DNA of 64,000 bases, taken from assembly GCA_036403295.1 (NCBI GenBank), contig DASWRG010000058.1:27815-91814 (forward strand). The letters are read 5' to 3'. This DNA comes from Pyrinomonadaceae bacterium (GTDB lineage Bacteria > Acidobacteriota > Blastocatellia > Pyrinomonadales > Pyrinomonadaceae). Under the pieces are notes generated by a model. The model was not told the origin of the DNA. It made no database searches and saw only the letters and a program-made list of their open reading frames with translations. The translations under genes and the position numbers were made by a program. Numbering within the stretch: the first letter of the stretch is position 1; the number at the start of each line of letters is the position of its first letter. Below are positions 28,924 to 63,285 of the stretch, piece after piece.

Positions 28924-32139
<3,216 letters not shown>

Positions 32140-32142
32140 AAG

Positions 32143-32259
32143 TCACCGCAGAGACGCGGAGACGCAGAGGAAAAATAAGAGTAGGCAGTTAGCAGTGCGC
32201 AGTTGGTAGTAATACTTGACTTTTATCTTTCTTGTATCGTCTCTGCGTCTCTGCGGTGA
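32143..32259. repeat. Tandem-unit hairpin element, CGCAGAGA family, with a ~67-nt loop containing GCAGTT tandem units
   Basis: tcaccgcagagacgcggagacgcagagg ... cgtctctgcgtctctgcggtga. The loop contains aggcagttagcagtgcgcagttgg. Confidence 0.8.
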
Positions 32260-32282
32260 GCAATTATTTTCAAGGGAAACAA

Positions 32283-32690
32283 ATGGAAATCAACAGCCGC
32301 GAAACCATCAAACAAATCTTGGACGAGTGCCGCGTCATCGCCGTCGTCGGCCTTTCATCAAGCCCCATGCGCGCCTCGCACGGCGTCGCCGGATACATGC
32401 GCAAGCAGGGCTACAAAATTATTCCGGTGAACCCGAACGAATCGCAGGTCTTCGGCGAACAAGCTTATCCGTCTTTGGACGAAGTTCCCGAAAAAATAGA
32501 CCTCGTGGATGTCTTTCGTCGCTCCGACGAGGCGGGCGAAGTCGTTGACCAGGCGATCAAACTCGGCGCGAAAGCCGTCTGGCTGCAAGAAGGCGTGATA
32601 GACCGCGACGCCGCCCAACGCGCCCTCGACGCAGGCTTGCTCGTCGTGATGGATCGCTGCTGGCTCAAAGAACATATCATGCATAAATAG
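32283..32690 (+). CDS. CoA-binding domain protein (YccU/YneT-like)
   Basis: IAVVGLSSSPMRASHGVAGYMRKQGYKIIPVNP...VDVFR...AVWLQEG. ATG 32283 is preferred because the longer ORF N-terminus merely translates the hairpin arm. Confidence 0.8.
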   Translation: MEINSRETIKQILDECRVIAVVGLSSSPMRASHGVAGYMRKQGYKIIPVNPNESQVFGEQAYPSLDEVPEKIDLVDVFRRSDEAGEVVDQAIKLGAKAVWLQEGVIDRDAAQRALDAGLLVVMDRCWLKEHIMHK

Positions 32691-32710
32691 TCTGCCGTAT
32701 CCGCGTTCCA

Positions 32711-32953
32711 TTACCATTCTTCAGGAGGCAAAGAAGCTGCTTGCATTGCTTGAAGGCTAACGTCCAACTCGGACGACTGAGTTGCATAAACGTCATCCAG
32801 TTGTTTTGTGATGTCACTCCCATTTTGCTCGCGTTGCGAAACGGCTTCTTTGATGACAAATGCAATATAATCTTCAAGCGGGATGCCGCTCTGGCTGGCC
32901 TGTTTGCGGGCATAAGTCTCAATCTCTGGTTTTAATTCGATTGTAATTGTCAT
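32711..32953 (-). CDS. Small antitoxin-like protein (orphan); function uncertain
   Basis: 80 aa from ATG 32953 (MTITIELKPEIETYARKQASQSGIPLEDYIAFVIKEAV...). It reads as a ribbon-helix-helix-like N-terminus, and no partner gene lies downstream. Confidence 0.35.
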   Translation of the reverse strand: MTITIELKPEIETYARKQASQSGIPLEDYIAFVIKEAVSQREQNGSDITKQLDDVYATQSSELDVSLQAMQAASLPPEEW

Positions 32954-33008
32954 GTCCGGGATTTTAGCACAAAGTGAATTGAGCCAATGATAGAGTTGAA
33001 GAATAAAG

Positions 33009-33506: not shown

Positions 33507-33532
33507 GGCTTTACGGCTTCACAAAAGAAAAT

Positions 33533-33615: not shown

Positions 33616-34035
33616 ATGCTCGGTGCGATACTTCTGCAAACAACTGCGGCACATCAGGTGGGCAGTCCGATCACGGCTTACTGGCCGGTGATGATCTTCT
33701 TCGTCTTTGCTCTCATCTTCCCGGTGCTGCCGATTGTGTTAGGACGCTTCGTGCGTCCGATGATTTACAACAAGGCGAAGATGCGGCCTTATGAGTGCGG
33801 CATAGACCCGACGACGGAGGCGCACGACCGCTTCACGGTTCGTTACTACATCGTCGCCATGCTCTTTCTGATCTTCGATGTCGAGACGATTTTTCTGTTG
33901 CCGTGGGCGATTATCTTCATGGGCGACGATTTCACTTTCACCAAATTCGCCTTGATAGAGATGTTCGTCTTCATCGGCATCCTGATCGTCGGCTACTACT
34001 ACGCTTGGCGCAAAGGCGCGCTGGAATGGGCTTAA
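33616..34035 (+). CDS. nuoA: NADH-quinone oxidoreductase subunit A
   Basis: The YECG..P motif (PYECGIDP), three TM helices, and a GAGGAGAG RBS upstream of ATG 33616. Confidence 0.9.
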   Translation: MLGAILLQTTAAHQVGSPITAYWPVMIFFVFALIFPVLPIVLGRFVRPMIYNKAKMRPYECGIDPTTEAHDRFTVRYYIVAMLFLIFDVETIFLLPWAIIFMGDDFTFTKFALIEMFVFIGILIVGYYYAWRKGALEWA

Positions 34036-34037
34036 CG

Positions 34038-34098
34038 CAGTTTTCAGTTTTTAGTTTTCAGCACGAACTAAAAACTAAAAACTGAAAACTGAAAACTG
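34038..34098. repeat. Tandem-unit hairpin element, AGTTTTY family (copy 1 of 4)
   Basis: cagttttcagtttttagttttcag - cacgaa - ctaaaaactaaaaactgaaaactgaaaactg. It starts 2 nt after the nuoA stop and ends 3 nt before the nuoB ATG. Confidence 0.9.
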
Positions 34099-36379: not shown

Positions 36380-37012
36380 CTACAGGCCGGAGAGGTGGCG
36401 CGTGTCGTTGATGGCGAGCACGCGGACAAAGCCGTCTGTGCGCAGGTCAATTCGTGAGATGCCGCAGTTGGCCGTGCTAATCCAGACTGGTTTCAACTCC
36501 GGCGCGTCGAGTGCGCCCATCAGATGCAGTGTGAGAATGCAGATCGTGCCGGTGTGCGTGAAGATGGCGACGCGCCCGCCTTTGTGCGCGGCGATGATCC
36601 GGTCTAGCTCGCGTGAGGCGCGGTCGAGCATCTGGCGATAGCTCTCGCCGCCTAAAATTACGTGCTCGAAATCTCTCCTAAGCAACGCCGCATATTGTTC
36701 AGGATGCTGTGCGGCGGCCTCTTCAAAAGACAAGCCTTCCATCACGCCGACGCTGCGTTCACGAAAAGCCTCTGTCGATAAGACCTCAAGCCCTGTGAGC
36801 TGCGCGAGCGGCGTCGCCGTCGCCACTGCGCGCGGCAAGTCTGACGAATAAATCGCGTTGAACTTTTCCGGCGCGAGCGCACGCGCCGTCGCGTCCGCTT
36901 CACGCCGCCCGCGCTCCGAGAGCGGCGTCGCCGTGTGTCCGCCAAAACGCCCCTCCGCGTTGCCCTCGGATTGACCATGACGGATTAGAAGCAATCTTGT
37001 CGTTTCAGACAT
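36380..37012 (-). CDS. Histidine phosphatase family protein (phosphoglycerate mutase-like)
   Basis: LLLIRHGQSEGN (RHG motif) and a later H in IFTHTG. ATG 37012 is preferred because the longer ORF start lies inside the hairpin arm. Confidence 0.8.
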   Translation of the reverse strand: MSETTRLLLIRHGQSEGNAEGRFGGHTATPLSERGRREADATARALAPEKFNAIYSSDLPRAVATATPLAQLTGLEVLSTEAFRERSVGVMEGLSFEEAAAQHPEQYAALLRRDFEHVILGGESYRQMLDRASRELDRIIAAHKGGRVAIFTHTGTICILTLHLMGALDAPELKPVWISTANCGISRIDLRTDGFVRVLAINDTRHLSGL

Positions 37013-37020
37013 AGTAAAAA

Positions 37021-37099
37021 AGTGATGGGTCATGAGTGATGAGTGATGAGAGACAAGCTGTTGTCTTTAACTCATTACTCGTCACTCATCACTCGTCAC
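37021..37099. repeat. Tandem-unit hairpin element, GTGATGA family
   Basis: gtgatgggtcatgagtgatgagtgatgagagacaagct ... ctcattactcgtcactcatcactcgtcact. Confidence 0.8.
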
Positions 37100-37104
37100 T
37101 GCTT

Positions 37105-38181
37105 TTACGCCGCGACTGCTTCGGCCTTCAGCTTTTCTGCCTGGTAATGTGTCGTGAGGGCGTTGATGATTTCGTCGAGCGCACCTTCCATGACGAGGTT
37201 TAGTTGATGAATGGTCAGGCCGATGCGATGGTCTGAGACGCGGTTATCTTTAAAGTTGTAAGTGCGAATCTTTTCCGAGCGGTCGCCTGAGCCGACCATC
37301 GAGCGGCGTTCGGAGGCGAGGGCTTCGTGCTGCTTCTGCTCTTCCAATTCCTGAAGGCGCGCACGCAGGACTCTCATCGCCTTCTCACGATTCTTGATCT
37401 GCGATTTCTCGTCCTGCATCGAGACGACCGTGTTGGTCGGAAGATGCGTGATGCGAACCGCCGAGTAGGTCGTGTTCACAGACTGGCCGCCCGGCCCCGA
37501 AGAGCAGAAGGTGTCTATGCGTAAATCCTTCTGGTCAATCTTCACGTCAACCTCTTCGGCTTCGGGCAGCACCGCGACGGTGACGGCGGAGGTGTGTATG
37601 CGCCCGCTCGTCTCAGTCTGCGGAACGCGCTGGACGCGATGAACGCCGGATTCGTGTTTGAGCTTCGAGTAAACCTTGTCGCCTTCGATCAAAGCGATGG
37701 CTTCCTTGACGCCGCCGATGCCGGATTCCGAAGCGTCCATAATCTCCATGCGCCACCCCTGCCGCTCGGCGTAACGCGCGTACATCCTGAGCATCTCGGC
37801 TGCAAAGAGCGATGCCTCGTCGCCGCCCGTTCCCGCGCGAATCTCCAGGATGACGTTCTTCTCATCATTCGGGTCTGACGGAATCAGAAGCAGCTTCAAG
37901 TCCGCGTCGCACTGCTCAAGCCGCGCCTGCAAAGTGTCAATCTCAACGCGAGCCAGCTCGCGCATCTCTTCGTCGTCGGCTGTGTCGAGCAGTTCGCGCG
38001 CGCCCGTCAACTGGTCATTTAAAGCTTTCCACTCGCGGTATTTTTCCACGACTTCGCCGAGACTCCGATGCTGCTTCGCGGCCTTCGTGTAAGCAGCTTG
38101 ATCCGGGAATGAATCCCTCGAAGAGAGCTGTTCGGTCAGCTCTTCATAGTGTGTGACAATTTGTTCTAATCTATCGAGCAT
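37105..38181 (-). CDS. prfA: Peptide chain release factor 1
   Basis: It has the GGQ motif ([11 protein letters not shown]) and the RF1-type P-x-T motif ([14 protein letters not shown]). Confidence 0.95.
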
Positions 38182-41869: not shown

Positions 41870-41870
41870 A

Positions 41871-41952
41871 GGAGTCAGAACACAGGACTCAGGAGTCAGA
41901 ATAAAAACAGCTTGCCTTTCATTCTGAGTCCTGAATCCTGAGTCCTGAATTC
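41871..41952. repeat. Tandem-unit hairpin element, GAGTCCT/CAGGACT family
   Basis: ggagtcagaacacaggactcaggagtcagaat ... attctgagtcctgaatcctgagtcctgaattc. Confidence 0.8.
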
Positions 41953-41958
41953 TATTTT

Positions 41959-42216
41959 ATGACTCCGAAAGAGTTGGCAACACATTACGGAGCGAAAGTT
42001 TTCGAGACGAACGAGGCGGCTGCGGCTGCGGGCTTCGTCGTGACGGAAACGATGACCCCGCGCAATATTTGGAACAAGGCGAGCGCGGCGCAGGCCATCA
42101 TCTATAAGTTGCTGGCGAAGAAGAGAAGCGGCGAAGCGCAGGAGATCGGTTTCGTGCTCGGAAATCACGACATCTCCGGTTGCTATCTTCCAACATCAGC
42201 CGAAGCTGAGACATGA
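41959..42216 (+). CDS. Hypothetical 85-aa protein inserted between nuoC and nuoD
   Basis: The ORF has a third-position G/C bias like neighbouring genes and is bracketed by two hairpin elements. I recognise no family. Confidence 0.45.
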   Translation: MTPKELATHYGAKVFETNEAAAAAGFVVTETMTPRNIWNKASAAQAIIYKLLAKKRSGEAQEIGFVLGNHDISGCYLPTSAEAET

Positions 42217-42248
42217 AATCTGAGATTTCAAATCTCAAATCTGAAATC
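42215..42248. repeat. Tandem-unit hairpin element, AAATCTS family
   Basis: gaaatctgagatttcaaatctcaaatctgaaatc contains nested GAAATC/GATTTC and GATTTCA/TGAAATC stems. Confidence 0.7.
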
Positions 42249-42253
42249 CGTTT

Positions 42254-43387
42254 ATGCATCAAGTAGAAATCGCCACCACGCGTGAGACGCTGCTCGACAG
42301 CCCCGAAATGGTCTTGAACATGGGGCCGCAGCACCCCTCAACACATGGAGTGTTGCGCGTCATCCTGCGCCTCGACGGCGAGACGGTGATTGATCTGGAT
42401 TGCGACATCGGCTTTCTGCATCGAGGGATGGAGAAGATTGCGGAGAGTCGCCAGTATCCGATGATCGCGCCTTACTGGGACAGGCTCGATTACATCGCGG
42501 CGGTCTCGAACGGCCTCGTCTGGGTCGAGACGGTCGAGCAGATGATGGGCCTGGACGTTCCGCCGCGCGCTCATTACCTCCGCACGATCTTGACGGAGCT
42601 GAATCGCATCGCCTCGCACCTGCTCTGGCTCGCCACGCACGGCCTCGACATAGGCTCTTTCACAGTCTTGTTGTGGGCCTTGAGAGAGCGCGAGGAGATT
42701 CTGAAAATTTTCGAGCGACAGTTCGGCGCGCGCCTCACTTGTCACGCGTGGCGCATCGGCGGAATGCCGAACGACGCTTACGACGGCTTTCAAAAAGACG
42801 TGCAGCAGTTCGTCAACAATTTTCCGAAACGGATAGACGAGTACGAGACTCTGCTTTCGGAGAATCGCATCTGGCTCGGACGCACGGTTGGAGTCGGCGT
42901 CATCTCCGCCGAAGACGCGATTGCCATCGGGCTTTCCGGCCCGGCCTTGCGCGGCTCTGGCGTCGCGTGGGACATACGCAAGACGCGTCCGTATGCCGCC
43001 TATGCCGATATGGATTTCGACATTCCGGTCGGTGAGAACGGCGACACCTATGATCGTTACCTCGTGCGCCTCGAAGAGATGAAGCAGTCGCGTCGCATTA
43101 TTCAGCAGGGGATTGATAAGCTGCCGGACGGCCCCGTCAACGCCAAAGTCCCGAAGATTATCAAGCCGCCCGCAGGCGATTATTATCATTCCATCGAAGG
43201 ACCGAAGGGCGAAATCGGTTGTTACCTGGTCTCGGACGGCACGGCCAGCCCCGCGCGCGTCCGCGTGAGGCCGCCATGCTTCATCAACTTGCAGGCTCTG
43301 AGGCAGATGTGCCTCGGCCACCTGGTCGCGGATGTCGTGGCGATTATCGGAACGCTCGACATCGTGCTTGGTGAAATTGATAGATAG
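42254..43387 (+). CDS. nuoD: NADH-quinone oxidoreductase subunit D
   Basis: [14 protein letters not shown]...[12 protein letters not shown]...[10 protein letters not shown]. Confidence 0.95.
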
Positions 43388-43473
43388 TTTTCAGTTTTCA
43401 GTTTTTAGTTTTTAGTTCTTAGTTCGCGGCTCGATAGTTCTTTCTGAAAACTGGAAACTAAAAACTGAAAACT
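43386..43473. repeat. Tandem-unit hairpin element, AGTTTTY family (copy 2 of 4)
   Basis: agttttcagttttcagtttttagtttttagttcttagttcg ... ctgaaaactggaaactaaaaactgaaaact. It overlaps the nuoD stop and abuts the next ATG. Confidence 0.9.
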
Positions 43474-43932
43474 ATGAAAGTCGTTCATCTCAAAATCCAG
43501 CCGATGACGCGCGAGGCGTTTGCGCCGTATGGAATTTTGATTGACAGTCGCGGTTCGGTGGAGATTGATTTAGGGAAGGGCGCTCCGAGCTTGACGGGCG
43601 CGACCTCAGAGCGCAGGCCGTTCGGCTTTGAGTTTATGGCGCGGCACAGGCTAACGATGCAGGTCTTTTCGCCGCTCGCTTCGTCGGAATCAATCATCGC
43701 CGTCGCTCCGCCGAACGAGTTGGACGCGCCTGAGATTGAACGGATCGCGGCGTTTCATGTGAGCGGGCGACTTCCTTACGCGTATCACAAGGGGACTTGG
43801 CACACGCCGCCGTTTCCGGTTCAAGATTGGTCTTCGTATCTGGTGGTGGACAGGAGCGGGACGCTCGACGACGATTGGGAATTGGTTGACCTCAGGGTCA
43901 CGCATCAGACCGTGTTCGAGATCGATTTTTAA
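43474..43932 (+). CDS. Ureidoglycolate lyase (AllA)-like cupin protein embedded in the nuo operon
   Basis: Hand alignment to E. coli AllA pairs IQPMTREAFAPYGILID with LPLSQEAFSAYGDVIE, ARHRLTMQVFSPL with ERHPLGTQAFIPM, YHKGTWHTPPF with YHRNVWHHPLF, and VVDRSG with TIDRGG. Confidence 0.7.
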   Translation: MKVVHLKIQPMTREAFAPYGILIDSRGSVEIDLGKGAPSLTGATSERRPFGFEFMARHRLTMQVFSPLASSESIIAVAPPNELDAPEIERIAAFHVSGRLPYAYHKGTWHTPPFPVQDWSSYLVVDRSGTLDDDWELVDLRVTHQTVFEIDF

Positions 43933-45908: not shown

Positions 45909-45996
45909 CAGTTTTTAGTTTTCAGTTTTTAGTTTTCAGTCGTTCATCTGCGCTGAAACTTTATGGCTGAAAACTAAAAACCGAAAACTGAAAACT
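45909..45996. repeat. Tandem-unit hairpin element, AGTTTTY family (copy 3 of 4)
   Basis: cagtttttagttttcagtttttagttttcag ... gctgaaaactaaaaaccgaaaactgaaaact. It abuts the nuoJ ATG. Confidence 0.9.
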
Positions 45997-46644
45997 ATGG
46001 TTCTGACCGGTTGGGAAGCCGTCTTTTTCTGGATATTTGCGATAGCCGCGTTGGTGGCGGGGTTGTTGACTGTGCTGGCGCGCAACGCCGTGCATAGCGC
46101 GCTGTTTCTGATCTCATCGCTGGTGTCTGTGGCCGCGCTCTTCGTGCTGCTCGGCGCGGAATTCATCGCGGGCGTGCAGGTCTTGGTTTACGTCGGCGGC
46201 GTGATGGTCTTGTTCCTGTTCGTCATCATGCTGGTCAACGTCGGCGCGGAAGAGCGCGGGCGCGAGGAAATCTTCAATCGCACGCCGCAGGTCGTGACGA
46301 GCATCGTTTTCTCGCTGCTGTTGGCGTTGGGTCTGGTCTTTGCCATCAATCAAGGCTTAACCGGACTGCGCAAACGCGATGATGCCTCCATCAGTCAGGC
46401 GGAAAAACTTCGCGCCGCGCAACAGCAGAGCTTGCAGACTTCGGCCACCGGCTCGACGAAGATTACCAGGGACACGGAAAACGTCGGCTCAAGCCTCTAT
46501 CGTTACGGCAGCCTCGCGTTTGAGATCGCCAGCCTCTTGCTGCTCGTCGCCATCATAGGCTCTGTCATGCTCGCGCGCACAGTCAAGCAGGAGGCCGCAG
46601 CAAATGATATTGACCCGGAAAGCTTAGTGATAAGTGATGAGTGA
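45997..46644 (+). CDS. nuoJ: NADH-quinone oxidoreductase subunit J
   Basis: It has the typical NuoJ TM pattern (NAVHSALFLI...GAEFIAGVQVLVYVGGVMVLFLFVIML). The last codons (VISDE*) lie inside a hairpin arm. Confidence 0.9.
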   Translation: MVLTGWEAVFFWIFAIAALVAGLLTVLARNAVHSALFLISSLVSVAALFVLLGAEFIAGVQVLVYVGGVMVLFLFVIMLVNVGAEERGREEIFNRTPQVVTSIVFSLLLALGLVFAINQGLTGLRKRDDASISQAEKLRAAQQQSLQTSATGSTKITRDTENVGSSLYRYGSLAFEIASLLLLVAIIGSVMLARTVKQEAAANDIDPESLVISDE

Positions 46645-46698
46645 TAAATGATAAGAGACAAGCTATTCGGATTTTCTTATCACTCATCACCTGTCACT
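46626..46698. repeat. Tandem-unit hairpin element, GTGATGA family
   Basis: agtgataagtgatgagtgataaatgataagagacaagct ... cttatcactcatcacctgtcact. It shares AGAGACAAGCT with the element at 37021. Confidence 0.8.
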
Positions 46699-46709
46699 AA
46701 AAAAAACTT

Positions 46710-47108
46710 ATGAATGCAATTTATCCCGGTATGATTTTGTGGTGGCAGGAAGCGGGCAAGTGGGCGCAGGTGTGGGATAACATGAAGCAGCCGGACTTGT
46801 CGAAGTTTCTGGTCATCGGCGCGCTGCTTTTTATCATCGGCGTGGCGGGCGTGCTCACCAGGCGCAACATCATCGTCATCTTCATGTCCATCGAGCTGAT
46901 CTTGAACGCAGCTAACTTGAACTTCATCGCCTTCTCTCGTTACTTGCAGGACACGGGCAAGATGAACGCCATCGCCGGCCAGGTCTTTACGATCTTTATC
47001 ATCGTCGTCGCCGCCGCCGAAGCCGCCATCGGCCTCGGCATCGTCATCGCGCTCTATCGCAATCGGGAAACGATCTGGGTTGATGAGATTGATCTACTGA
47101 AATGGTAA
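46710..47108 (+). CDS. nuoK: NADH-quinone oxidoreductase subunit K
   Basis: [33 protein letters not shown]. The alternative start ATG 46782 (MKQPDLS...) would give the usual ~108 aa. Confidence 0.9.
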
Positions 47109-47111: not shown

Positions 47112-47186
47112 CAGTTTTCAGTTTTTAGTTTTCAGTTTTAAGAAATCTGCTTGCACTGAAAACTAAAAACTGAAAACTGAAAACTG
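47112..47186. repeat. Tandem-unit hairpin element, AGTTTTY family (copy 4 of 4)
   Basis: cagttttcagtttttagttttcagttttaag ... ctgaaaactaaaaactgaaaactgaaaactg. It starts 3 nt after the nuoK stop and ends 3 nt before the nuoL ATG. Confidence 0.9.
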
Positions 47187-49779: not shown

Positions 49780-49901
49780 GCTGTGCTTTGGAATTTGTTC
49801 TTTGTGCTTTGCACGCGGCTCAACATTAAGCTCATCGCTCAAGCTTGAGCATTACGAACAAAGAACAAAAGACAAAGAACAAAGTACAAAAGACAAAAAT
49901 C
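49780..49901. repeat. Tandem-unit hairpin element, CTTTGTR family, with an inner palindrome GCTCAAGCTTGAGC
   Basis: gctgtgctttggaatttgttctttgtgctttgcacg ... cgaacaaagaacaaaagacaaagaacaaagtacaaaagacaaaaatc. Confidence 0.7.
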
Positions 49902-51599
49902 ATGAAACTTCCTTATCTTCTTTCCATCATCACATGGCTGCCCGCGCTGGGCGCGATGTTCATTCTCGCGGTCTTTAAGAAAGAGCAGTCCAAGCTCATC
50001 AAGCAGTTTACGACCGCTTGGTTCGCGTTGACGTTTTTAGGCTCGCTGTTGCTGCTGAATTACGACCGCGCGCGTGGCGGGATGCAGTTTCTCGAAGATA
50101 AGTCGTGGATTCCGATTATCGGCGCACGCTACCAGATGGGCGCGGACGGCGTGGCGGTGCTGCTCATTGTGCTGACGACGCTGCTCGGCGTCATCGCCTG
50201 CCTCTCCTCCTGGAAATATATCGAGAAGCGCGAGAAGGAATATTACGTTCTGCTCCTGCTCTTGCAGACCGCAGTGGTCGGCGTCTTCGCTTCGATGGAC
50301 TTGTTTCTCTTCTATCTCTTCTTTGAAGTCTCGCTCGTGCCGATGTATTTCCTGATCGGCATCTGGGGCGGCGAGAGAAGATTGTACGCGGCGATAAAAT
50401 TTTTCCTCTACACTTTGGTCGGCTCGGTCGTGATGCTGCTCGGCGTGTTGAAGATGTACTTCCTGACGCAGGACGCGACGATGGCGGGTCAGATAAGCGA
50501 AGCGACGCTCAAGACTATCGCTCCCAACGGGGAGGCGCGCGTGCTCCTCGATGCTGCGGTGGCGGCGGCCAAAAGCGGCGCGGGCACATTCAATATCATG
50601 TACATGCAGTCGTTAGGCTCTGTGATGCCGATGGGCACGATGCAGGTACTGCTTTTCTTCGCCTTCGCGCTCGGCTTTGCGATCAAAGTCCCGATGTTTC
50701 CGTTTCACACCTGGCTGCCGGACGCGCACGTCGAAGCTCCGACCGCAGGCTCTGTCATTCTCGCGGGCATTTTGCTCAAGCTCGGAACTTACGGCTTCTT
50801 CCGTTTCAACCTGCCGATGTTTCCCAAAGCCTCGATTGATGAAACGAGTTGGCAGACGGGCTTCGGGACGTTCGGCGTGAGGAGCGTGATGGTCTTCCTC
50901 GCGCTCGTCGGCATCATCTACGGCGCGCTGGCGGCGATGTACTTCGTCGTCAAAAAGGACGGTGACGTGAAGAAGCTGGTCGCGTATTCGTCCGTCTCTT
51001 CGATGGGCGTCGTGATGCTCGGCCTCTTCTCTTTGAATCCGAACGGAGTCAACGGCGCGGTCTTGCACATGGTCAATCACGGTATCTATTCCGCCGCGCT
51101 CTTCCTGCTCGTCGGCATCATTTACGAGCGACGGCACACGCGCAACATAGCCGAGTTCGGCGGCCTCTCGCACGTCATGCCGGGATACGCGGCGGTCTTT
51201 CTGGCGATGGCGATGACGGCCATCGGATTGCCGCTCCTGTGCGTCTTCATCTCAGAATTTTTAGCCATGCGCGGAGCTTTTGAAGCCAAGCCTTTGTGGG
51301 CTTCGTGGGCTGCGCTCGGAATCATCCTGAACGCGGGTTACATGCTCTGGCTCTATCAACGCATGTTCTTCGGCAACATCGAGAATCCGAAGAACGAAAA
51401 GCTGATAGACATGAGCGGGCGCGAGTGGGCATACATGCTGCCGCTCGTCGTGCTCTCGATCTGGATCGGCGTCTACCCGACGTTTTTCACGGACTACATC
51501 CAGCAGCCCGTCAACGCGGTGGTGAGACAGGTGCGCCCGAGCTATCCGATACCGGGCGGGCCGCCCGTACAGCAAGTGCCGGAGACGGCGGCGAAGTAA
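49902..51599 (+). CDS. nuoM: NADH-quinone oxidoreductase subunit M
   Basis: It has the antiporter-like core (FPFHTWLPDAHVEAPTAGSVILAG). ATG 49902 is preferred; the longer ORF N-terminus (KEQKTKNKVQKTK) just translates the repeat arm. Confidence 0.95.
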   Translation: MKLPYLLSIITWLPALGAMFILAVFKKEQSKLIKQFTTAWFALTFLGSLLLLNYDRARGGMQFLEDKSWIPIIGARYQMGADGVAVLLIVLTTLLGVIACLSSWKYIEKREKEYYVLLLLLQTAVVGVFASMDLFLFYLFFEVSLVPMYFLIGIWGGERRLYAAIKFFLYTLVGSVVMLLGVLKMYFLTQDATMAGQISEATLKTIAPNGEARVLLDAAVAAAKSGAGTFNIMYMQSLGSVMPMGTMQVLLFFAFALGFAIKVPMFPFHTWLPDAHVEAPTAGSVILAGILLKLGTYGFFRFNLPMFPKASIDETSWQTGFGTFGVRSVMVFLALVGIIYGALAAMYFVVKKDGDVKKLVAYSSVSSMGVVMLGLFSLNPNGVNGAVLHMVNHGIYSAALFLLVGIIYERRHTRNIAEFGGLSHVMPGYAAVFLAMAMTAIGLPLLCVFISEFLAMRGAFEAKPLWASWAALGIILNAGYMLWLYQRMFFGNIENPKNEKLIDMSGREWAYMLPLVVLSIWIGVYPTFFTDYIQQPVNAVVRQVRPSYPIPGGPPVQQVPETAAK

Positions 51600-51600
51600 A

Positions 51601-51702
51601 TTTTGCTCTTTGTACTTTGTGCTTTGCTTGTGAGTTTCAAACTTGAGAAATAGGCTCAATGCTGAGCCACTTGCAAAGCGCAAAGCACAAAGTACAAAAA
51701 TC
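51601..51702. repeat. Tandem-unit hairpin element, CTTTGTR family
   Basis: ttttgctctttgtactttgtgctttgcttgtgag ... cttgcaaagcgcaaagcacaaagtacaaaaatc. There are 19 nt of perfect complementarity (TTTGTACTTTGTGCTTTGC). Confidence 0.8.
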
Positions 51703-51708
51703 TAAAAT

Positions 51709-53327: not shown

Positions 53328-53407
53328 CCGCAAAGGCGCAAAGAAAAGCACGCAAGGAACAAGCAGCATTCAGCGTCTTTGCGTTCTTCCTTTGCGCCTT
53401 TGCGCGA
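53328..53407. repeat. Tandem-unit hairpin element, CTTTGCG/CGCAAAG family
   Basis: cccgcaaaggcgcaaagaaaagcacgcaaggaac ... gtctttgcgttcttcctttgcgcctttgcgcg. It shares a 28-mer and an 18-mer with the element at 61213. Confidence 0.85.
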
Positions 53408-53422
53408 GATTCTTTGATTTCC

Positions 53423-54661
53423 ATGTGGGTCTTTTACTTCTTCGCGGTCATCGTTATCTGGCAGGGCTTGATGTCGCTCGCGAGCGGCGTGCGGTTTCTC
53501 GCGTATGTGCGGCGCGAGATGGAGAAGCCGCCGAATAATTTCACGCCCTTCGTTTCTCTCATCGCGCCGTGTCGCGGCCTCGATCAAGGTTTGAGAGAGA
53601 ATCTCGCCGCGCTCTTCCGGCAAAGCTTTCCGGCCTACGAAATTATTTTTGTGACTGACAGAGCCGATGATCCGGCCATCGCCGTCATCGAAGAAGCGCG
53701 CCGTGAATTTGAGAAGCAAGCTCACATTACTTCTCGTCTCGTCATCGCGGGCGAGGCGACCGGGAGCGGGCAGAAGGTTCACAACCTGCTCGCGGCTGTC
53801 GCTGAAGCCGATGTGAAAAGCTTCGCCTTCATCTTCGCGGATACGGACGCGCGCCCCTCGGCTGATTGGCTGCGCTGGCTCATCTCGCCTCTGAATTGTC
53901 AAAATGTCGGAGCGGCGACAGGCTATCGCTGGTTCATTCCAGAGCGCGGCGGCTTTAGCTCGCACCTGCGCGCGGTGTGGAACGCTTCGATTGCTTCGGC
54001 CCTGGGCGAGCGCGGCGACAGGAATTTTTGCTGGGGAGGCGCGACCGCCATTCGCCGCGAGACGTTTGAAAAACTTGTGATGAGAGACGTGTGGCGCGGC
54101 ACGCTCTCGGACGATTTCGCTCTGATGCGCGCCCTCAGACGCGCGAAGCTCGACATCTATTTCGTGCCCGCGTGCCTCACGGCGTCGGTTGAAGATTGCG
54201 GCTTGCTTGAGCTCTTGGAGTTTACTACGCGGCAACTAAAGATCACGCGCGTCTACGCGCCGCATTTCTGGAAAGCAGTCCTCGCGGGCAGCCTGCTCTT
54301 CGTCTCCGTCTTCTTCGGCGGCCTCGCGCTGGTCATCACGCGCGCCGCGCTCGGCCTCTCGTACTGGCTGCCGCTCATGCTCCTGAGCCTGATTTTCATA
54401 CTCGGAGCAGCCAAAGCCGCCCTGCGCCTGCGCGCCGTCCGTCTGCCGTTAAAAGCTTATGATGCGGAGCTTACTAAAGGCGCGCTCGCGCATCTGACGC
54501 TCTGGCCGCTCGCGTCCGCGCTCTATCTGTACAACGCCGTCTGCGCGCTCTTCTCGCGTCGCATCAACTGGCGCGGCATCACCTACGAATTGAAATCACC
54601 GACGGAAACTGTCATCATGGAAAAGCAGGTTCAAAGTTCAAGGTTCAAAGTTCAAGGTTAA
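53423..54661 (+). CDS. Membrane glycosyltransferase, GT2/GT21 (ceramide-glucosyltransferase/HpnI-like)
   Basis: LIAPCRGLD...EIIFV.D..DDPA...GQKVHNL...FADTDARP...SDDFAL, with N- and C-terminal TM helices. The last 11 codons lie in a hairpin arm. Confidence 0.7.
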   Translation: MWVFYFFAVIVIWQGLMSLASGVRFLAYVRREMEKPPNNFTPFVSLIAPCRGLDQGLRENLAALFRQSFPAYEIIFVTDRADDPAIAVIEEARREFEKQAHITSRLVIAGEATGSGQKVHNLLAAVAEADVKSFAFIFADTDARPSADWLRWLISPLNCQNVGAATGYRWFIPERGGFSSHLRAVWNASIASALGERGDRNFCWGGATAIRRETFEKLVMRDVWRGTLSDDFALMRALRRAKLDIYFVPACLTASVEDCGLLELLEFTTRQLKITRVYAPHFWKAVLAGSLLFVSVFFGGLALVITRAALGLSYWLPLMLLSLIFILGAAKAALRLRAVRLPLKAYDAELTKGALAHLTLWPLASALYLYNAVCALFSRRINWRGITYELKSPTETVIMEKQVQSSRFKVQG

Positions 54662-54706
54662 GACATGGAGTCTGTCTTTTAACCTTGAACTTTGAACCTT
54701 GAACCC
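54627..54706. repeat. Tandem-unit hairpin element, GTTCAAR family
   Basis: aggttcaaagttcaaggttcaaagttcaaggttaagaca ... tgtcttttaaccttgaactttgaaccttgaaccct. Confidence 0.9.
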
Positions 54707-55838
54707 TCTTAAAAGCGTGTTAGCTAAAGCCACACAACTTGTCCAACTTCTGCGTTCGACGAAACGCGAAAAGCGTCTCGGCACGGTGATTCTATTTGTC
54801 ACGTCGCGCTGCAATGCGTTCTGCAAGACCTGCTTTTATCATGAAGAGCTGAACCAGCCGGGCGACCTGTCCCTTGAACAGCTTGAGAAGATTTCAAACA
54901 CGATGCCGCCCATCACAGACCTCTGGCTGTCTGGCGGCGAGCCGATGCTGCGGCGAGACCTGACGCAGGTGATTGACACTTTTATTCTCAACAACGGCGT
55001 CAAGCGCATCATCATCCCGACCAACGGCCTCGTCAAAGCGCGCACGTTTGAAGTCGTCAATCACGCCCTCGAAAATCATCCCGCGATTGATCTCTATCTG
55101 AACATCGCGCTCGACGGTTACGGCCAGACTCACGACGAAATTAGAGGCGTGCCGGGCAACTGGGAAAAGACTCTGGACTGCATCTCTTCGCTCTATCCCT
55201 TGAAAGAGAAGTGCGCGTCTCGCTTTCGCCTCAACGTCAACACGGTCGTCTGCGCCGAGAATTACACAGAGATTGAGAAGCTCTCCGAGTTTTTGTGGAA
55301 GAACTTTCGACTCGACGGGCAATACTTCAACATCGTGCGCGGCGAAACCAAAGTCGGAGACGAGATCAAACAAGTCCCGCCGGAAATCTTGCCTGAGATG
55401 TACGCGCGCGTCTCTGCTTTAACCAAACGCTACGGCGACCGGATGTTTGCCGCAGATGACGCGAGCAAACGTTTCGTCAAAAACGTGGCCTACGTCGGCG
55501 CAATCGCGACGCACTATCGCACGCAACACGCCAACTTTAAGGGCGCGAGCGATTGGCCTTTCCCCTGCACGGCTGGCGAGACGACCGCCGTCATTGATTA
55601 CAACGGTGATGTGAGAGCCTGCGAGCTGAGGGAAAAGTTTGCGACGCTCGCCGATTACGATTTCGATTTCGGCAAGCTCTGGGCTGAGCAAGAACGGCAG
55701 ACCGAACTGCGCGCGATTGACGGCGGCAAGGCGTGCTGGTGCACGCACGTCTGCTTCATACACGACTCCATGCGCCACTCGCGCCGCGCGCTGCTTTATG
55801 AGCTGCCGAAAAATTATTTGACGCGCAATTCATGGTAG
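54699..55838 (+). CDS. Radical SAM enzyme with a SPASM/twitch-like C-terminal Cys motif
   Basis: It has CNAFCKTC (CX3CX2C), then C-X12-G-X4-C (CTAGETTAVIDYNGDVRAC) and CWCTHVC. The start is uncertain: TTG 54699 or GTG 54717. Confidence 0.75.
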   Translation: MNPLKSVLAKATQLVQLLRSTKREKRLGTVILFVTSRCNAFCKTCFYHEELNQPGDLSLEQLEKISNTMPPITDLWLSGGEPMLRRDLTQVIDTFILNNGVKRIIIPTNGLVKARTFEVVNHALENHPAIDLYLNIALDGYGQTHDEIRGVPGNWEKTLDCISSLYPLKEKCASRFRLNVNTVVCAENYTEIEKLSEFLWKNFRLDGQYFNIVRGETKVGDEIKQVPPEILPEMYARVSALTKRYGDRMFAADDASKRFVKNVAYVGAIATHYRTQHANFKGASDWPFPCTAGETTAVIDYNGDVRACELREKFATLADYDFDFGKLWAEQERQTELRAIDGGKACWCTHVCFIHDSMRHSRRALLYELPKNYLTRNSW

Positions 55839-55913
55839 TTCAAAGTTCAAGGTTTAAGGTTCAAAGTTAATATCATCCTGCGAACCTTGAACCTTAAACT
55901 TTGAACCTTGAAC
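55838..55913. repeat. Tandem-unit hairpin element, GTTCAAR family
   Basis: gttcaaagttcaaggtttaaggttcaaagttaa ... cgaaccttgaaccttaaactttgaaccttgaac. Confidence 0.9.
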
Positions 55914-58177: not shown

Positions 58178-58200
58178 GGCTCGAAGCCGGAAAAGTCGAA

Positions 58201-58240
58201 AAGGCTTGTCGAAGCTTTAAAGCTTCGACAAGCCTTTTTT
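58201..58240 (+). terminator. Strong intrinsic terminator after atpE
   Basis: AAGGCTTGTCGAAGCTTT/AAAGCTTCGACAAGCCTT is a perfect 18-bp palindrome followed by TTTTTT. Confidence 0.85.
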
Positions 58241-60079: not shown

Positions 60080-60096
60080 ATATAGACATCAATAAT

Positions 60097-61197
60097 TCAA
60101 TTACTTCTTCCTCGAATTACTCGATTGACCAGCTCAATCATTTTCGGCTCATCATCAAAGCTGACCTCAATCTCATTCACATAACACGGCAGCTCGAACC
60201 GCAGGCCGCAGAGCTTGACCGCGTCCTTCGCCGTCGTTATCAGAGATTGCGCGCCGCGCTCAATTGCTTCACGGGTCAACGCGTCAACGTCGCTCTGTGT
60301 GTAATCATGATGATCGCGGAAGCTCCTGGTGTGGGCGAGCGTGTGTCCATCTTCGATGAGGTGCGCGAAGAAGGTTTGCGGATTGCCGAGAGCGCAGAAG
60401 GCCGCGACGGGCTGTGGCAGAGAGGCGGCGAAAACAGCCTCTTTATCATTCTTCAGAGTTTTATTTTCAAGAGCCGCCTCGTTATCCAATAATTCACCTG
60501 CGAGCCGTCGCACGCGCGTCGTGCGTGTGCGCGAGACGAGGAGAGGTCGCCCGCCGCTCGTGTGTTCGGCTTCGGCGCGAATGGAGTCGATGTCTGAGAC
60601 TAGATTCGCGCGCGTGAGGACGAGAGCGTCTGCGCGTTTGAGTCCGTCGAGAGGTTCACGCAGGCGACCGCGCGGCAAAAGTCGCCCGCCGCCCCAGGGA
60701 TTCGACGCATCTATGGCGACCAGATTCAAGTCGCGCGCGATGGCTAAATGCTGAAACCCGTCGTCGAGGATGAAAAGACTGCTCTTCAAATTTTCCAACG
60801 CCCATCGCGCCCCGGCCACGCGGTCTGCGTTGCTGATGACAGCCGCAAATCCCAACAGCATCTCCGCCAGCAGACGCGGCTCGTCGCCGCCTTCCCTCGC
60901 TTCCGCGAGCAGCCGCGCGCCGTCCGAGACTAACACTTGCTTCGACTCGTCCGCGCGCCCGTAACCGCGCGTGAGAACGCAGACTTTCTCTCCCAGCTCA
61001 GCCGCGCGACGCGCGAGCCATGCGACGAGCGGCGTCTTGCCCGTCCCGCCCGCAGTGATGTTGCCGACGCTGATGACGGGAGCCGCAATCTTTTCCGTGT
61101 GCAGCGCGCCCGCGCGATAGAGCATCAGTCGCGCACGCGTCGCCGCGCCGTAGAGCGCGCTCAAAGGAGAGAACAGCATGTTTGAAGGGATGGGCAT
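60097..61197 (-). CDS. lpxK: Tetraacyldisaccharide 4-prime-kinase
   Basis: The P-loop VISVGNITAGGTGKTP and the length are typical of LpxK. Confidence 0.9.
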   Translation of the reverse strand: MPIPSNMLFSPLSALYGAATRARLMLYRAGALHTEKIAAPVISVGNITAGGTGKTPLVAWLARRAAELGEKVCVLTRGYGRADESKQVLVSDGARLLAEAREGGDEPRLLAEMLLGFAAVISNADRVAGARWALENLKSSLFILDDGFQHLAIARDLNLVAIDASNPWGGGRLLPRGRLREPLDGLKRADALVLTRANLVSDIDSIRAEAEHTSGGRPLLVSRTRTTRVRRLAGELLDNEAALENKTLKNDKEAVFAASLPQPVAAFCALGNPQTFFAHLIEDGHTLAHTRSFRDHHDYTQSDVDALTREAIERGAQSLITTAKDAVKLCGLRFELPCYVNEIEVSFDDEPKMIELVNRVIRGRSN

Positions 61198-61212
61198 GTA
61201 CGAGAAAGAATC

Positions 61213-61311
61213 TCACGCAAAGGCGCAAAGGCGCAAAGAAAAGCACGCAAGCTTCAAGTGGCACTCAACCTCTTAGCGTTCTTCCTTTGCGCCACCAGCG
61301 CCTTTGCGTGA
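61213..61311. repeat. Tandem-unit hairpin element, CTTTGCG/CGCAAAG family
   Basis: tcacgcaaaggcgcaaaggcgcaaagaaaagcacgcaagc ... cttagcgttcttcctttgcgccaccagcgcctttgcgtga. Confidence 0.85.
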
Positions 61312-61329
61312 AAATTATTCTGATACAGC

Positions 61330-62640
61330 TTACTTCTCATCCATCAACACGCCGAGCATCTCAACCGTCCTTTCAGTCGCGCCGCGATTCTGCTTCATGA
61401 TTGAGAGCGCGCGGGCGGCAAGCTCCTGCCGACGCTCTTTGTCTGCGAGCAATTCCGAAAAGACTGTGGAGAGAGCGGCGACTGCTTCGTCGTCCGTCAC
61501 GGGCGGAAGCTCTACGAGCGCGTTGGCTTTGGTGAAGACGCGCATGATGGCTGCGAAGTTGAACGTGTGCGCGCCAGTGACGATACACTTTCCAGCCGCC
61601 GCAGGCTCAAGCACATTATGCCCGCCAACGGGAGCGATGCTGCCGCCGACGAAAACCATCTCCGCGAGAGGATAGACTGCGCGAAGCTCTCCGATGCTGT
61701 CGAGCAGGATCGCGTCACACTCTTTATCACTTGCCGTTGTAACAGCAGAGCGGCGTGACCATGTGAGGCCGGAATTGTTTAAGAGGGAAGCTGTCTCTGC
61801 GAATCGTTCGGGATGGCGCGGGGCGATGAGCAGTCTCGGAGCGTGTGCGGCGGAAGCTTTACTCGCTTCCTTGAACGCTTCGATGACGATTCGTTCTTCG
61901 GGCGCGTGCGTGCTGGCGGCGACGATGAGCGGCCTCTCATTTCCGAGAGCAAAACGCGCGCGAAGCTCTGCGGTCAAACCCTGTTCGCTCGCGTCCACGC
62001 TGGCGTCAAACTTGATATTGCCTGTGACCTGGACGCGCTCAGGCGCGAGGCCGAGCGCACGGATTCGCGCGGCGTCCGCTTCGGCCTGCATGAGCGCGAG
62101 GTCGAGGTCGCAGACGACTCTTGAGATGAAACTGCGAAGCAGGCGATAGCGGCGGAATGAGCGTTCCGAGAGCCGACCGTTGACCATCGCCGTTCTGATT
62201 TTGCGCCGCCGGCACTCGCGCAGGAATCCCGGCCACAACTCCGTCTCCATAATCAGGACGACCGCCGGATTGATCGCGCGCAGAGTCCGGCGCACAGTCC
62301 AACGCCAATCGAAAGGGAAGTAGAAGACGAGCGCGGCTTCATTGCGAAAGACTTCGCGTGCGACTCTCTGGCCTGTCAGCGTGATGGTCGAGACGACGAG
62401 CTTGTAATTCGGAAAGCGTTGGCGAAGCTCCTGAACGAGAGGCCGCGCGGCCTGCGTCTCTCCGACCGAAACCGAATGCAGCCAGACGACCGGACGCCCG
62501 TCCCGTTCGAGCGCGGGGACTTTGCCCAACCGCTCGCCGAGTCCCGCCACATATTTGCCGTGACGCAGGGCGTCAAGCAGAAAACGCGGCAGCAGCACGA
62601 CGACGCCGAGCGTGAGCAGGATGCTGTAGAGAAGATACAC
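61330..62640 (-). CDS. waaA: 3-deoxy-D-manno-octulosonic acid (Kdo) transferase
   Basis: VWLHSVSVGETQAARPL and the GT30 layout. The GTG start lies immediately after a hairpin arm. Confidence 0.9.
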   Translation of the reverse strand: MYLLYSILLTLGVVVLLPRFLLDALRHGKYVAGLGERLGKVPALERDGRPVVWLHSVSVGETQAARPLVQELRQRFPNYKLVVSTITLTGQRVAREVFRNEAALVFYFPFDWRWTVRRTLRAINPAVVLIMETELWPGFLRECRRRKIRTAMVNGRLSERSFRRYRLLRSFISRVVCDLDLALMQAEADAARIRALGLAPERVQVTGNIKFDASVDASEQGLTAELRARFALGNERPLIVAASTHAPEERIVIEAFKEASKASAAHAPRLLIAPRHPERFAETASLLNNSGLTWSRRSAVTTASDKECDAILLDSIGELRAVYPLAEMVFVGGSIAPVGGHNVLEPAAAGKCIVTGAHTFNFAAIMRVFTKANALVELPPVTDDEAVAALSTVFSELLADKERRQELAARALSIMKQNRGATERTVEMLGVLMDEK

Positions 62641-62721
62641 AGTTCAGGGTTCAAGGTTCAAAGTTCAAGGTTCAAAGTGGATGAGCGTTAAACCTTGAAC
62701 TTTGAATCTTGAGCCTTGAAC
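62641..62721. repeat. Tandem-unit hairpin element, GTTCAAR family
   Basis: agttcagggttcaaggttcaaagttcaaggttcaaag ... ttaaaccttgaactttgaatcttgagccttgaac. It exactly fills the efp-stop to waaA-start gap. Confidence 0.9.
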
Positions 62722-63285
62722 TTATTTCGCGCGTTCGATGTAACGTCCTTCGGAAGGAGAGACGCGGATGCGGTCGCCTTCGTTGACGAAGGGCGGAACC
62801 TGTATCGTGACGCCGTTCTCAAGCGTCGCGGGCTTGTTGACGTTCGAGACGGTCGCGCCCTTCATCGTCGGCTCGGTGCTCACGACGGTCAACTCCATCG
62901 AAGCGGGCAATTCGACGCCGAGGGGCGTGCCCTCGTAAAACTCGACCTGAATCTTGAGGCCGGGCGTGAGCCACTGCGTCGCGTCGCCGAGGTCTTCTTC
63001 GCTGAGGCCGATCTGCTCGTAGTTCTCCGTGTTCATGAAGTGATGCTGCGAGCCGTCCGAGTAAAGATATTCCATGTCATGCTGTTCGAGCGAGGCGCGC
63101 TCGATGGTATCCGCCGAGCGAAAGCGATGCTCGAAGGATGAGCCTGTGCGAATGTCTCTGAGCTTGGTCTGCACCATCGCGCGCAGGTTGCCGGGCGTGT
63201 GGTGGCGAAACTCCACGACCTTACAAAGTTTTCCTTCAAACAGGATGACCATGCCGCGCCGTAGCTGTGTTGCGGGTATTGCCAT
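62722..63285 (-). CDS. efp: Translation elongation factor P
   Basis: Full-length hand alignment to E. coli EF-P. The C-terminus reads [34 protein letters not shown]. Confidence 0.95.

Follow-up and report, generated by a model that had tools for sequence, protein, structure and literature searches.

Palindromic heptamer repeats occupy gaps between nuo genes in Pyrinomonadaceae (Acidobacteriota)

A 64-kb stretch of DNA from a Pyrinomonadaceae bacterium (Acidobacteriota; GCA_036403295.1, contig DASWRG010000058.1), hereafter the window, carries a nuo gene cluster in which the gaps between consecutive genes are occupied by hairpins made of palindromic tandem heptamers. The nuo genes are arranged as nuoA, nuoB and a separate block, nuoC-orf85-nuoD-cupin-nuoH-I-J-K-L-M-N, followed by a family 2 glycosyltransferase gene (GT2, HpnI-like), a radical S-adenosylmethionine (radical SAM) gene and atpZ-atpI-atpB-atpE. 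The minus strand carries prfA with a histidine phosphatase gene, and efp-waaA-lpxK. Pfam searches upheld the gene names of a preliminary description of this DNA, which had proposed that hairpins fill eleven intercistronic gaps almost to the nucleotide and that the genes downstream of them lack a Shine-Dalgarno (SD) sequence. Its stop and start coordinates were correct, and most of the downstream starts are backed by homology, which in 29-80 relatives extends from residue 1 of orf85, nuoD, cupin, nuoJ, nuoL, nuoM (ATG 49902), nuoN and atpZ. A feature that it did not note is that each hairpin consists of a run of tandem heptamers and a run of their reverse complement, built as (unit)3-5, loop, (reverse-complement unit)3-5.

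Junctions were folded from stop codon to start codon, and the minimum free energy (MFE) was expressed as a z-score against 200 dinucleotide shuffles. Ten of the eleven listed junctions, together with nuoJ-nuoK and GT2-radical SAM, formed stem-loops with MFEs of -27 to -44.7 kcal/mol and z-scores of -4.65 to -9.27, and at each of them 0/200 shuffles were as stable. The stop-hairpin-start arrangement therefore stands at all listed junctions but one. The exception, orf85-nuoD, contains only a direct heptamer array, (AAATCTN)n at 42217..42248 on the plus strand, which is C-rich, resembles a 3' arm and precedes the nuoD ATG at 42254; the junction (42214-42256) has no significant hairpin (MFE -5.6, z -0.84, 40/200 shuffles as stable). 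A search of the window against Rfam returned nothing but tRNA.

The unit families found in the window are CAGTTTT/TAGTTTT, GTTCAAG/GTTCAAA, TGTGCTT/TGTACTT, AGTGATG and GGAGTCA. On the plus strand, the nuoA-nuoB hairpin (34038..34098; MFE -27, z -7.3) has (CAGTTTT)n / (AAAACTG)n arms and lies between the nuoA stop (34033-34035) and the nuoB ATG (34102), with an MFE stem at 34038-34091 and an alternative register that reaches 34098. Hairpins of the same family are present at nuoD-cupin (43385..43474; MFE -34.7, z -6.6), at nuoI-nuoJ (45910..45996; MFE -40.1, z -8.3) and at nuoK-nuoL (47112..47186, MFE stem to 47179; MFE -35.3, z -7.4). At nuoD-cupin the stop codon UAG (43385-43387) is paired with CUA, whose A also opens the cupin ATG (43474). 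The nuoI stop is at 45903-45905 and the nuoJ ATG (45997) is immediately 3' of the final pair, and the nuoK-nuoL hairpin is flanked by the nuoK stop (47106-47108) and the nuoL ATG (47190). Upstream, the nuoC-orf85 hairpin (41870..41953; MFE -36.1, z -5.15) has arms of the (GGAGTCA)n / (TGACTCC) type between the nuoC stop (41867-41869) and the orf85 ATG (41959). The nuoL-nuoM hairpin (49782..49895; TGTGCTT/TGTTCTT family; MFE -38, z -4.65) has a long, structured loop and separates the nuoL stop (49776-49778) from the nuoM ATG (49902), which in the MFE fold is preceded by ∼13 unpaired nt. Between the nuoM stop (51597-51599) and the nuoN ATG (51709) lies a hairpin of the TTTGTGC/TTTGTAC family (51600..51708, core 51609-51698; MFE -44.7, z -7.9).

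Two plus-strand hairpins were absent from the preliminary list. The nuoJ-nuoK hairpin (46624..46700; AGTGATG family; MFE -33, z -7.0) has a left arm that codes for the final NuoJ residues and the stop (46642-46644), upstream of the nuoK ATG at 46710. The GT2-radical SAM hairpin (54636..54704; GTTCAAG family; MFE -44, z -9.3) likewise has its left arm inside the 3' end of GT2 (stop 54659-54661), and the radical SAM start is likely the GTG at 54717. The GTTCAAG family also forms the radical SAM-atpZ hairpin (55838..55913; MFE -35.8, z -8.4), with the radical SAM stop at 55836-55838 and the atpZ ATG at 55920, and, on the minus strand, the efp-waaA hairpin (62641..62722; MFE -41.4, z -9.3), with the efp stop at 62724-62722 and the waaA GTG at 62640. 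The minus-strand hairpin of prfA-histidine phosphatase (37015..37107; AGTGATG family; MFE -38.2, z -6.5) pairs the prfA stop (37107-37105), and the phosphatase starts either at ATG 37012 or at the in-frame ATG 37033 within the 3' arm. One GTTCAAG-family hairpin (19821..19906), likewise missing from the preliminary list, has no downstream cistron and is found between a tRNA gene and the stop of a convergent gene. Gaps are indeed filled to the nucleotide at nuoD-cupin, nuoI-nuoJ and efp-waaA. This does not hold for nuoB, nuoL and nuoM, where extra unpaired 3' repeat units had been counted as arm: 9-13 nt are unpaired in the MFE fold before these starts and that of nuoK, because the 3' arm carries extra repeat units.

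Repeat arms also run into coding sequence (46624-46644, 54636-54661 and 37012-37033), so that protein termini are remodeled, the C-termini of NuoJ and GT2 being heptamer-encoded, and start and stop calls are blurred. A mini open reading frame (ORF) with its own SD that overlaps the nuoC stop (41866-41904) was considered as a means of melting the left arm, and was dropped; comparable ORFs occur in 23/61 relatives, and the ATG at the nuoC stop is a by-product of the conserved ...AAA TGA end of nuoC.

A genome scan with NuoJ yielded 80 syntenic loci of 20 kb each, with 68-84% NuoJ identity, all of which come from Pyrinomonadaceae/Blastocatellia metagenome-assembled genomes (MAGs) of the Acidobacteriota. 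Together with the window, these 81 genomes (1.32 Mb) were surveyed for repeats, and 13 nuo-cluster junctions were compared; outside the nuo cluster, gene starts were crude ORF calls. The survey found 452 inverted repeats with a score of at least 14, whose arms had a mean self-identity of 0.64 at lag 7 as compared to 0.24-0.29 at lags 5, 6, 8 and 9. Clear heptamer hairpins made up 302 of the 452 and occurred in 77 of the 81 loci, with 26 of the 302 called intragenic. At the nuo-cluster junctions a stem was present in 303 of 726 cases and a heptamer stem in 243, with a median lag-7 self-identity of 0.81, a median arm of 26 nt and a median loop of ∼29 nt; 82% of arms were at least 20 nt long and 75% at least 22 nt. 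Heptamer hairpins were present at 28% of the junctions in the nuo cluster, at 17% of the other co-directional ones and also in divergent and convergent gaps; 25 lay more than 60 nt from the next start. None was found in a prophage at 1-19346 of the window, and the neighboring host DNA has about one per 3 kb.

The sequences of the units vary widely. The 243 junction hairpins use 86 distinct units, and at nuoC-orf85 alone, different species carry GGAGTCA-type, ATAGTTA, AATGGTA, CAGTAGT, CAGTTTT or GAACCGT units. Even the closest relative (∼90% protein identity) has another unit family at nuoD-cupin, nuoI-nuoJ and nuoM-nuoN. The hairpin architecture is thus conserved at orthologous junctions while the unit sequence turns over fast. 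As a possible mark of a mobile element, a conserved loop core was sought and rejected, with only a weak 6-mer enrichment (GCTTTT or AAAAGC in 25-30 of 302 loops). Loops within a family were unrelated, lacking the conserved internal sequence that miniature inverted-repeat transposable elements carry between their inverted repeats.

Heptamers are not the only structured repeats at these sites. A second family, CGCAAAG / CTTTGCG with a period of ∼8-9, forms long intergenic hairpins in the window after the gene ending at 22747 (22780-22870), before the gene at 24314 (24070-24220), at nuoN-GT2 (53329-53404) and at waaA-lpxK (61213-61311). Four relatives (L010, at nuoL-nuoM, nuoM-nuoN and nuoN-GT2, and L011, L016 and L019) have other palindromic elements at the same junctions, among them a ∼150-nt element with TTAACAGGATGGACAGG-type ends and hairpins of the forms GGAGTGCGC...GCGCACTCC and GAGGCGGGC...GCCCGCCTC. 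Junctions of the nuo cluster seem to be general havens for structured repeats.

The stop-hairpin-start geometry holds across the relatives, and is tighter on the stop side than on the start side. When the 243 heptamer junctions were folded in full, pairing began a median of 1 nt past the stop (within 5 nt in 93%), included the stop codon in 40% and ended a median of 5 nt short of the start. Where room exists, the hairpin is nearer the stop in 97 cases and nearer the start in 19, and 3' arrays are on average longer than 5' arrays (146 cases vs 82). The spacer bases left outside the hairpin amount to a median of 12 nt; hairpin-free gaps, with which this slack was compared as a measure of ancestral-spacer length, are bimodal with a median of 39 nt.

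As the preliminary description had stated, none of the eleven downstream starts has an SD. Their duplex energies range from -2.2 to +3.7 kcal/mol against an anti-SD assumed to be canonical, since the window holds no 16S gene; SD sequences were scored by motif or by this energy. The six SD sequences that had been quoted from elsewhere in the window (nuoA, nuoI, atpI, atpE, 34930 and 24314) are all present. The dichotomy drawn from them was real in direction, with an SD at about 15 of 22 other starts and at 0 of 13 hairpin-abutted ones, but overstated as a rule: an SD is also missing from at least seven host genes that no hairpin abuts (nuoC, nuoH, prfA, 20588, 23117, 28924 and, on the minus strand, 26871). 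Across the 81 genomes, an SD was detected by duplex energy at 15% of 701 junction starts, and 61% had neither an SD nor a start-proximal repeat array. No SD accompanied any of the 113 hairpins that end within 8 nt of a start, and starts without a hairpin had one in only 19% of cases. Start-proximal arrays (n = 173; 148 C-rich vs 19 G-rich) were the 3' arm of a hairpin in 77% of cases and were accompanied by an SD at 7 of the 173 starts, as compared to 100 of 528 others (4% vs 19%); 22 had no inverted partner (C-rich 15 vs 5).

The absence of SD sequences had been attributed to the right arm, which fills the space that they would need. The exclusivity is real and mostly geometric: the G-poor 3' arm takes up positions -1 to -20, and hairpin and SD exclude each other because both would need the same 20 nt. 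Most of the listed cistrons are SD-less regardless, however. Among short gaps free of hairpins, an SD was present at 1/14 nuoD, 0/4 nuoJ, 0/8 nuoN, 0/3 orf85 and 1/10 radical SAM starts; in these genes, then, its absence is not due to removal by the hairpin. The corresponding counts were 7/9 for nuoI and 9/9 for atpZ by energy, and 4/36 for nuoK by motif. At nuoI the SD is kept: where a hairpin ends 9-25 nt upstream, GAGG or AGGAG follows it in 63% of cases.

In the genes that do use an SD (nuoI, nuoM, atpZ, nuoH and nuoK), one was found at 0 of 17 hairpin-abutted starts and at 98 of 278 others (p = 0.001). Across relatives L001 to L080, nuoM exists in two states, a GTG start with an SD (GGGGGA, GAGGA or GGAGG; 23/23) and an ATG start without one (34/36), the latter often having an ACTGA-type repeat upstream, either alone or together with its partner arm. 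Both nuoM and atpZ alternate between an SD leader and a repeat leader, and together with the loss of SD in SD-using genes these exchanges indicate that essential genes can use a repeat or hairpin leader in place of an SD leader. Hairpin-abutted starts were ATG in 103 of 104 cases, although start-calling favored ATG. We infer that SD-lessness belongs to these genes and to this lineage, and that the hairpins are no purpose-built replacement for the SD.

The two arms of the hairpins differ in composition. A G/T-rich 5' arm faces an A/C-rich 3' arm in 257 hairpins, as compared to 31 with the opposite arrangement. Selection near starts was ruled out as the cause of this polarity by hairpins located more than 60 nt from any start, which keep it (23 vs 2), as do those of convergent and divergent gaps; arm polarity is therefore intrinsic or inherited. 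Among the 243 junction hairpins, right-arm units contain ATG twice and GTG or AGG never, with 41, 45 and 30 for the respective triplets in left-arm units. Partner-less G-rich arrays adjoin stops and C-rich ones adjoin starts. The G-rich 5' arm was dropped as evidence of transcription direction, on which arm composition says nothing because a palindrome reads alike on both strands, and only orientation-specific features were used: mismatch type, position relative to codons, and partner-less arrays.

By these measures, no strand signature of RNA pairing was found in the mismatches (G.U-type 145, A.C-type 144), and sense folds had no advantage over antisense folds (-45.1 vs -45.5 kcal/mol; 117 vs 125). 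The order of variant units is mirrored between the arms, with 405 mismatches as compared to 722 when unit order was shuffled; mismatches were fewer in 140 hairpins and more in 10, figures that the choice of the best register inflates somewhat. This fits a DNA-level copying process that keeps the arms complementary, and offers no positive sign of selection for RNA pairing.

We read the hairpins as a genome-wide class of heptamer palindromes, akin to the short tandemly repeated repetitive (STRR) sequences of cyanobacteria and present in a new phylum, that is packed between codons and processed on the mRNA. We give this reading as a whole a probability of about 50%. Their identity as a repeat class, namely palindromic tandem heptamers in intergenic spacers of every kind, is well supported. 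The arrays would grow by replication slippage of the 7-nt unit, and the mirror symmetry of the arms would be maintained on the DNA, for instance by intrastrand template switching, and not through selection on each RNA base pair. The observed distribution of their edges suggests that the repeats expand until translation sets limits, the 5' edge at the upstream stop and the 3' edge at the start codon, or just upstream of the SD where one is used. If expansion is halted in this way, the stop-hairpin-start arrangement is a result of packing. The A/C-rich 3' arm, nearly free of ATG, GTG and SD-like triplets, could act as an innocuous SD-independent leader. Once transcribed, perfect stems of ∼26 bp would most likely be recognized as double-stranded RNA (dsRNA) and be cut by RNase III, act as a barrier to 3' exonucleases, or both. 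Cleavage by RNase III, the second mechanism suggested in the preliminary description, is plausible on stem length, the median arm of 26 nt exceeding the 20-22 bp or more of dsRNA that serves as the length criterion for this enzyme. The nuo and atp transcripts would then be split into segments in which downstream cistrons start on short, unstructured leaders, and a terminating ribosome that partly opens the stem base may contribute.

Several observations weigh against this reading. Cleavage and stabilization on the mRNA are purely inferred. The enrichment in the nuo cluster (odds ratio 2, p = 0.001) could mean positive selection rather than tolerance, and occupancy is uneven, reaching ∼75% of genomes at nuoK-nuoL and nuoI-nuoJ with hardly any hairpins at nuoJ-nuoK and cupin-nuoH. 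One unit family can occur at several junctions with unrelated loops, which slippage alone does not explain, and packing does not account for arm polarity. The tight anchoring at stop codons is just what a coupling device would require. The mismatch-symmetry test has low power, because one mismatch hardly affects a 26-bp stem; the 81 genomes share kinship, so that counts are not fully independent, and the canonical anti-SD may not be the host's own.

The anchoring at stops leads to the alternative of enforced translational coupling, the first mechanism suggested in the preliminary description, in which the hairpin hides the start region until the ribosome terminating on the upstream stop opens the stem base and frees the AUG with a short A/C-rich leader; SD-independent (re-)initiation would then ensure 1:1 expression. 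Stems within 5 nt of the stop in 93% of the 243 junctions, with the stop paired in 40%, agree with such a device, as do the preference for the stop side where there is room to choose (97 vs 19), the ATG at 103/104 abutted starts (subject to the bias in start-calling), and a 3' arm that cannot self-pair and is without competing start codons. The loss of SD in hairpin-abutted SD-using genes (0/17 vs 98/278) can be added, and the genes code for subunits of stoichiometric membrane complexes. On the other side, the left arm is almost wholly non-coding, and by the published geometry of the ribosomal helicase a ribosome with a stop codon in its A site keeps only ∼5 nt past the stop single-stranded and would open at most 3-8 of the ∼26 bp. 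Coupling has already been suggested for the cyanobacterial STRR hairpins (PMC2670836); structure just past the upstream stop, however, lowered coupling in a random-library screen, according to a review (PMC12548453). Hairpins without a downstream cistron (19821-19906), in divergent gaps or more than 60 nt from the next start also speak against it, as do their coexistence with a normal SD at nuoI, the 22 start-proximal arrays without a partner arm and the lack of a sense-strand folding advantage. On balance, we consider coupling unlikely. Distinctly improbable is a bacterial "shunt", in which 60-120 nt of spacer are zipped and the stop and AUG meet at the helix base for SD-independent termination-reinitiation throughout the lineage; the terminating ribosome would open the base and either pass on to the AUG or be replaced there by another. 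The junction cited for it is nuoD-cupin, whose stop UAG has its U paired with the A of the AUG. The shunt is likened to the hairpin-bypassing shunting on cauliflower mosaic virus 35S RNA and, if true, would operate at some ten junctions within one essential operon, the heptamer repeat being an evolvable zipper.

Alternatively, the hairpins could be neutral or selfish passengers whose stems stay uncut, tolerated because initiating ribosomes and S1 melt the A/U-rich base or because slipped registers of the arms free the final units from pairing. The fast turnover, the 86 different units, the occurrence in intergenic contexts of all kinds, the absence from the adjacent prophage, the lack of a strand-specific RNA signature, the other palindromic elements at the same junctions in relatives, and the longer 3' arrays (146 vs 82) that leave 9-13 unpaired nt before nuoB, nuoL and nuoM are all compatible with passengers. 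We consider this alternative somewhat less likely than coupling. A start that lies 0-6 nt from a stem of -30 to -45 kcal/mol, in an essential operon with high expression, should be strongly inhibited unless the stem is unwound or cut. Long perfect dsRNA rarely stays uncut in well-studied bacteria, and junction occupancy of up to ∼75% suggests more than tolerance. The symmetric G.T and A.C mismatches with their mirrored unit order, the dispersal of unit families over many sites with unrelated loops, and a G/T-rich 5' polarity that is independent of neighboring starts would suit elements that act as DNA, either as sites of extrusion or of binding (for example by a nucleoid protein, gyrase or a RAYT-like transposase) or as replication or recombination hotspots, with codon position incidental. 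We hold this to be very unlikely, since 86 units argue against a single sequence-specific binding protein, and the sharp positioning at stops and starts, like the scarcity of start codons among 3'-arm units, points to constraints of translation. Hardly credible at all are intrinsic terminators or attenuators that grade transcript levels along the operon. While stable stem-loops right after stops would suit them, no 3' arm is followed by a U-tract, the sequence going directly to ...ATTATG or ...CTATG; a terminator scan found none of the hairpins, and it is implausible that the operon of an obligate multi-subunit complex should contain ten terminators. The canonical and possibly bidirectional terminator after atpE (58199-58238), a perfect 20-bp palindrome with a T-run, looks different from the heptamer hairpins.

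Intercistronic stem-loops of other kinds offer partial parallels. Repetitive extragenic palindromic (REP) sequences and bacterial interspersed mosaic elements (BIMEs), the Correia elements of Neisseria and the enterobacterial repetitive intergenic consensus (ERIC) elements of Yersinia often lie past stops in operons, and their stem-loops have been proposed to affect transcript stability. REP sequences are dispersed extragenic palindromes (PMC3733652). The heptamer hairpins resemble REP and BIME in being dispersed extragenic palindromes just past stops within operons and in being able to form mRNA stem-loops. Unlike REP sequences, which have few consensus sequences and often a cognate REP-associated tyrosine transposase (RAYT), they have tandem-repeat arms, unrelated loops and no consensus. 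In place of one or a few 20-40 bp consensus palindromes there are 86 units, with at least five families in the window, and no Y1 transposase was found among the scanned proteins of the 64-kb window. The RNase III sites of phage T7 early mRNA are specific imperfect stems with internal loops, followed by normal SD leaders, and their cleavage gives separate mRNAs with defined ends. They share with the hairpins the position of long stem-loops between cistrons of a polycistronic RNA, whereas the hairpins are near-perfect repetitive stems that abut SD-less starts. In coupling by RNA unfolding (f1 genes VII-IX, MS2 coat-lysis, rpmI-rplT), part of the structure lies in the upstream coding region and is melted by elongating ribosomes. 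Unlike in those cases, the 5' arm here begins at or after the stop (median 1 nt) and is mostly untranslated.

The closest relatives by structure are heptamer repeats. In Nostocales, 7-bp STRR hairpins lie between hupS and hupL, and roles in transcript stability or translational coupling have been proposed for them (PMC2670836). G-rich heptamer repeats are found close to the ends of upstream ORFs in Xanthomonas and Nostoc (PMC4692102). The hairpins described here are like the STRR sequences of Nostoc, Anabaena and Lyngbya in their tandem 7-bp units, their intergenic position and their formation of hairpins between cistrons of one operon. They differ in that the host belongs to the Acidobacteriota, the palindrome is the rule, there are 86 units, and up to ten junctions of one nuo operon are filled. 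The published units STRR1-3, GGGGATT and GGGAATC had 0 tandem copies in the 1.32 Mb surveyed. In marine Beggiatoaceae, some Cyanobacteria and Bacteroidetes, direct TAACTGA repeats occur upstream of starts (MacGregor 2015, PMC4679880); the Beggiatoaceae have 169 direct sets and one indirect, with an SD at ∼10% of these starts as compared to 25% genome-wide (PMC4679880). As in that system, heptamers here end a few nt from the start, in one orientation, over the expected ribosome-binding site, and SD sequences are rare. Unlike in the Beggiatoaceae, where nearly all are direct, 77% of start-proximal arrays here are a hairpin arm. The commonest unit, AAACTGA, is one base off TAACTGA, and two tandem copies of TAACTGA itself are absent from the 1.32 Mb. 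CTGA is present in 72/243 3'-arm units vs 3/243 5'-arm units; it is shared with the TAACTGA repeats of Beggiatoaceae and, on the other strand, with CAGT-containing STRR units. The literature searched contained no account of repeats of this kind in Acidobacteria. The hairpins are therefore STRR-like repeats in a new phylum, unusually dense and palindromic.

Heptamers are the most over-represented long simple tandem repeats in many bacteria. An abundant soil lineage has them in extreme form: an essential operon of 14 kb holds up to ten ∼26-bp stems, and hairpins of -30 to -45 kcal/mol have start codons at their base. Natural swaps, in which one gene has an SD leader, a bare repeat or a hairpin in related genomes and the nuoM start codon co-varies, supply constructs for work on SD-independent initiation near strong structure, on RNase III processing and on the origin and homogenization of palindromic arrays. 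Where repeats reach into coding ends, as at the NuoJ C-terminus, they will confuse the prediction of gene starts and the assembly of these MAGs from short reads.

Several genes around the hairpins are of note in their own right. Of the 80 loci, 64 conserve the ∼85-aa product of orf85 (41959-42216, between nuoC and nuoD) from its first residue. This protein has no match in Pfam or NCBIfam and may serve complex I of this family as an unrecognized accessory subunit or assembly factor. The cupin gene (43474-43932), between nuoD and nuoH, is ureidoglycolate-lyase-like, with scores below the NCBIfam cut-offs, and is found in 31 of 80 relatives. NuoC (40733-41869) has 378 aa, with the 30-kDa subunit domain confined to residues 202-322 and a long N-terminal extension that is alignable in only 24 of 64 relatives. 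In the interval that separates the nuo operon from the atp operon (53414-55838), the GT2 gene, whose product resembles HpnI (E = 2.7e-39, below the cut-off), is followed by the radical SAM/SPASM-like gene, possibly a gene pair for a hopanoid side chain. The prophage (1-19346) adjoins a tRNA gene at 19742-19814 and encodes a lambda-type portal, a capsid/prohead protease fusion, a tape measure protein and a large, tail-fiber-like protein with a pectate-lyase fold.

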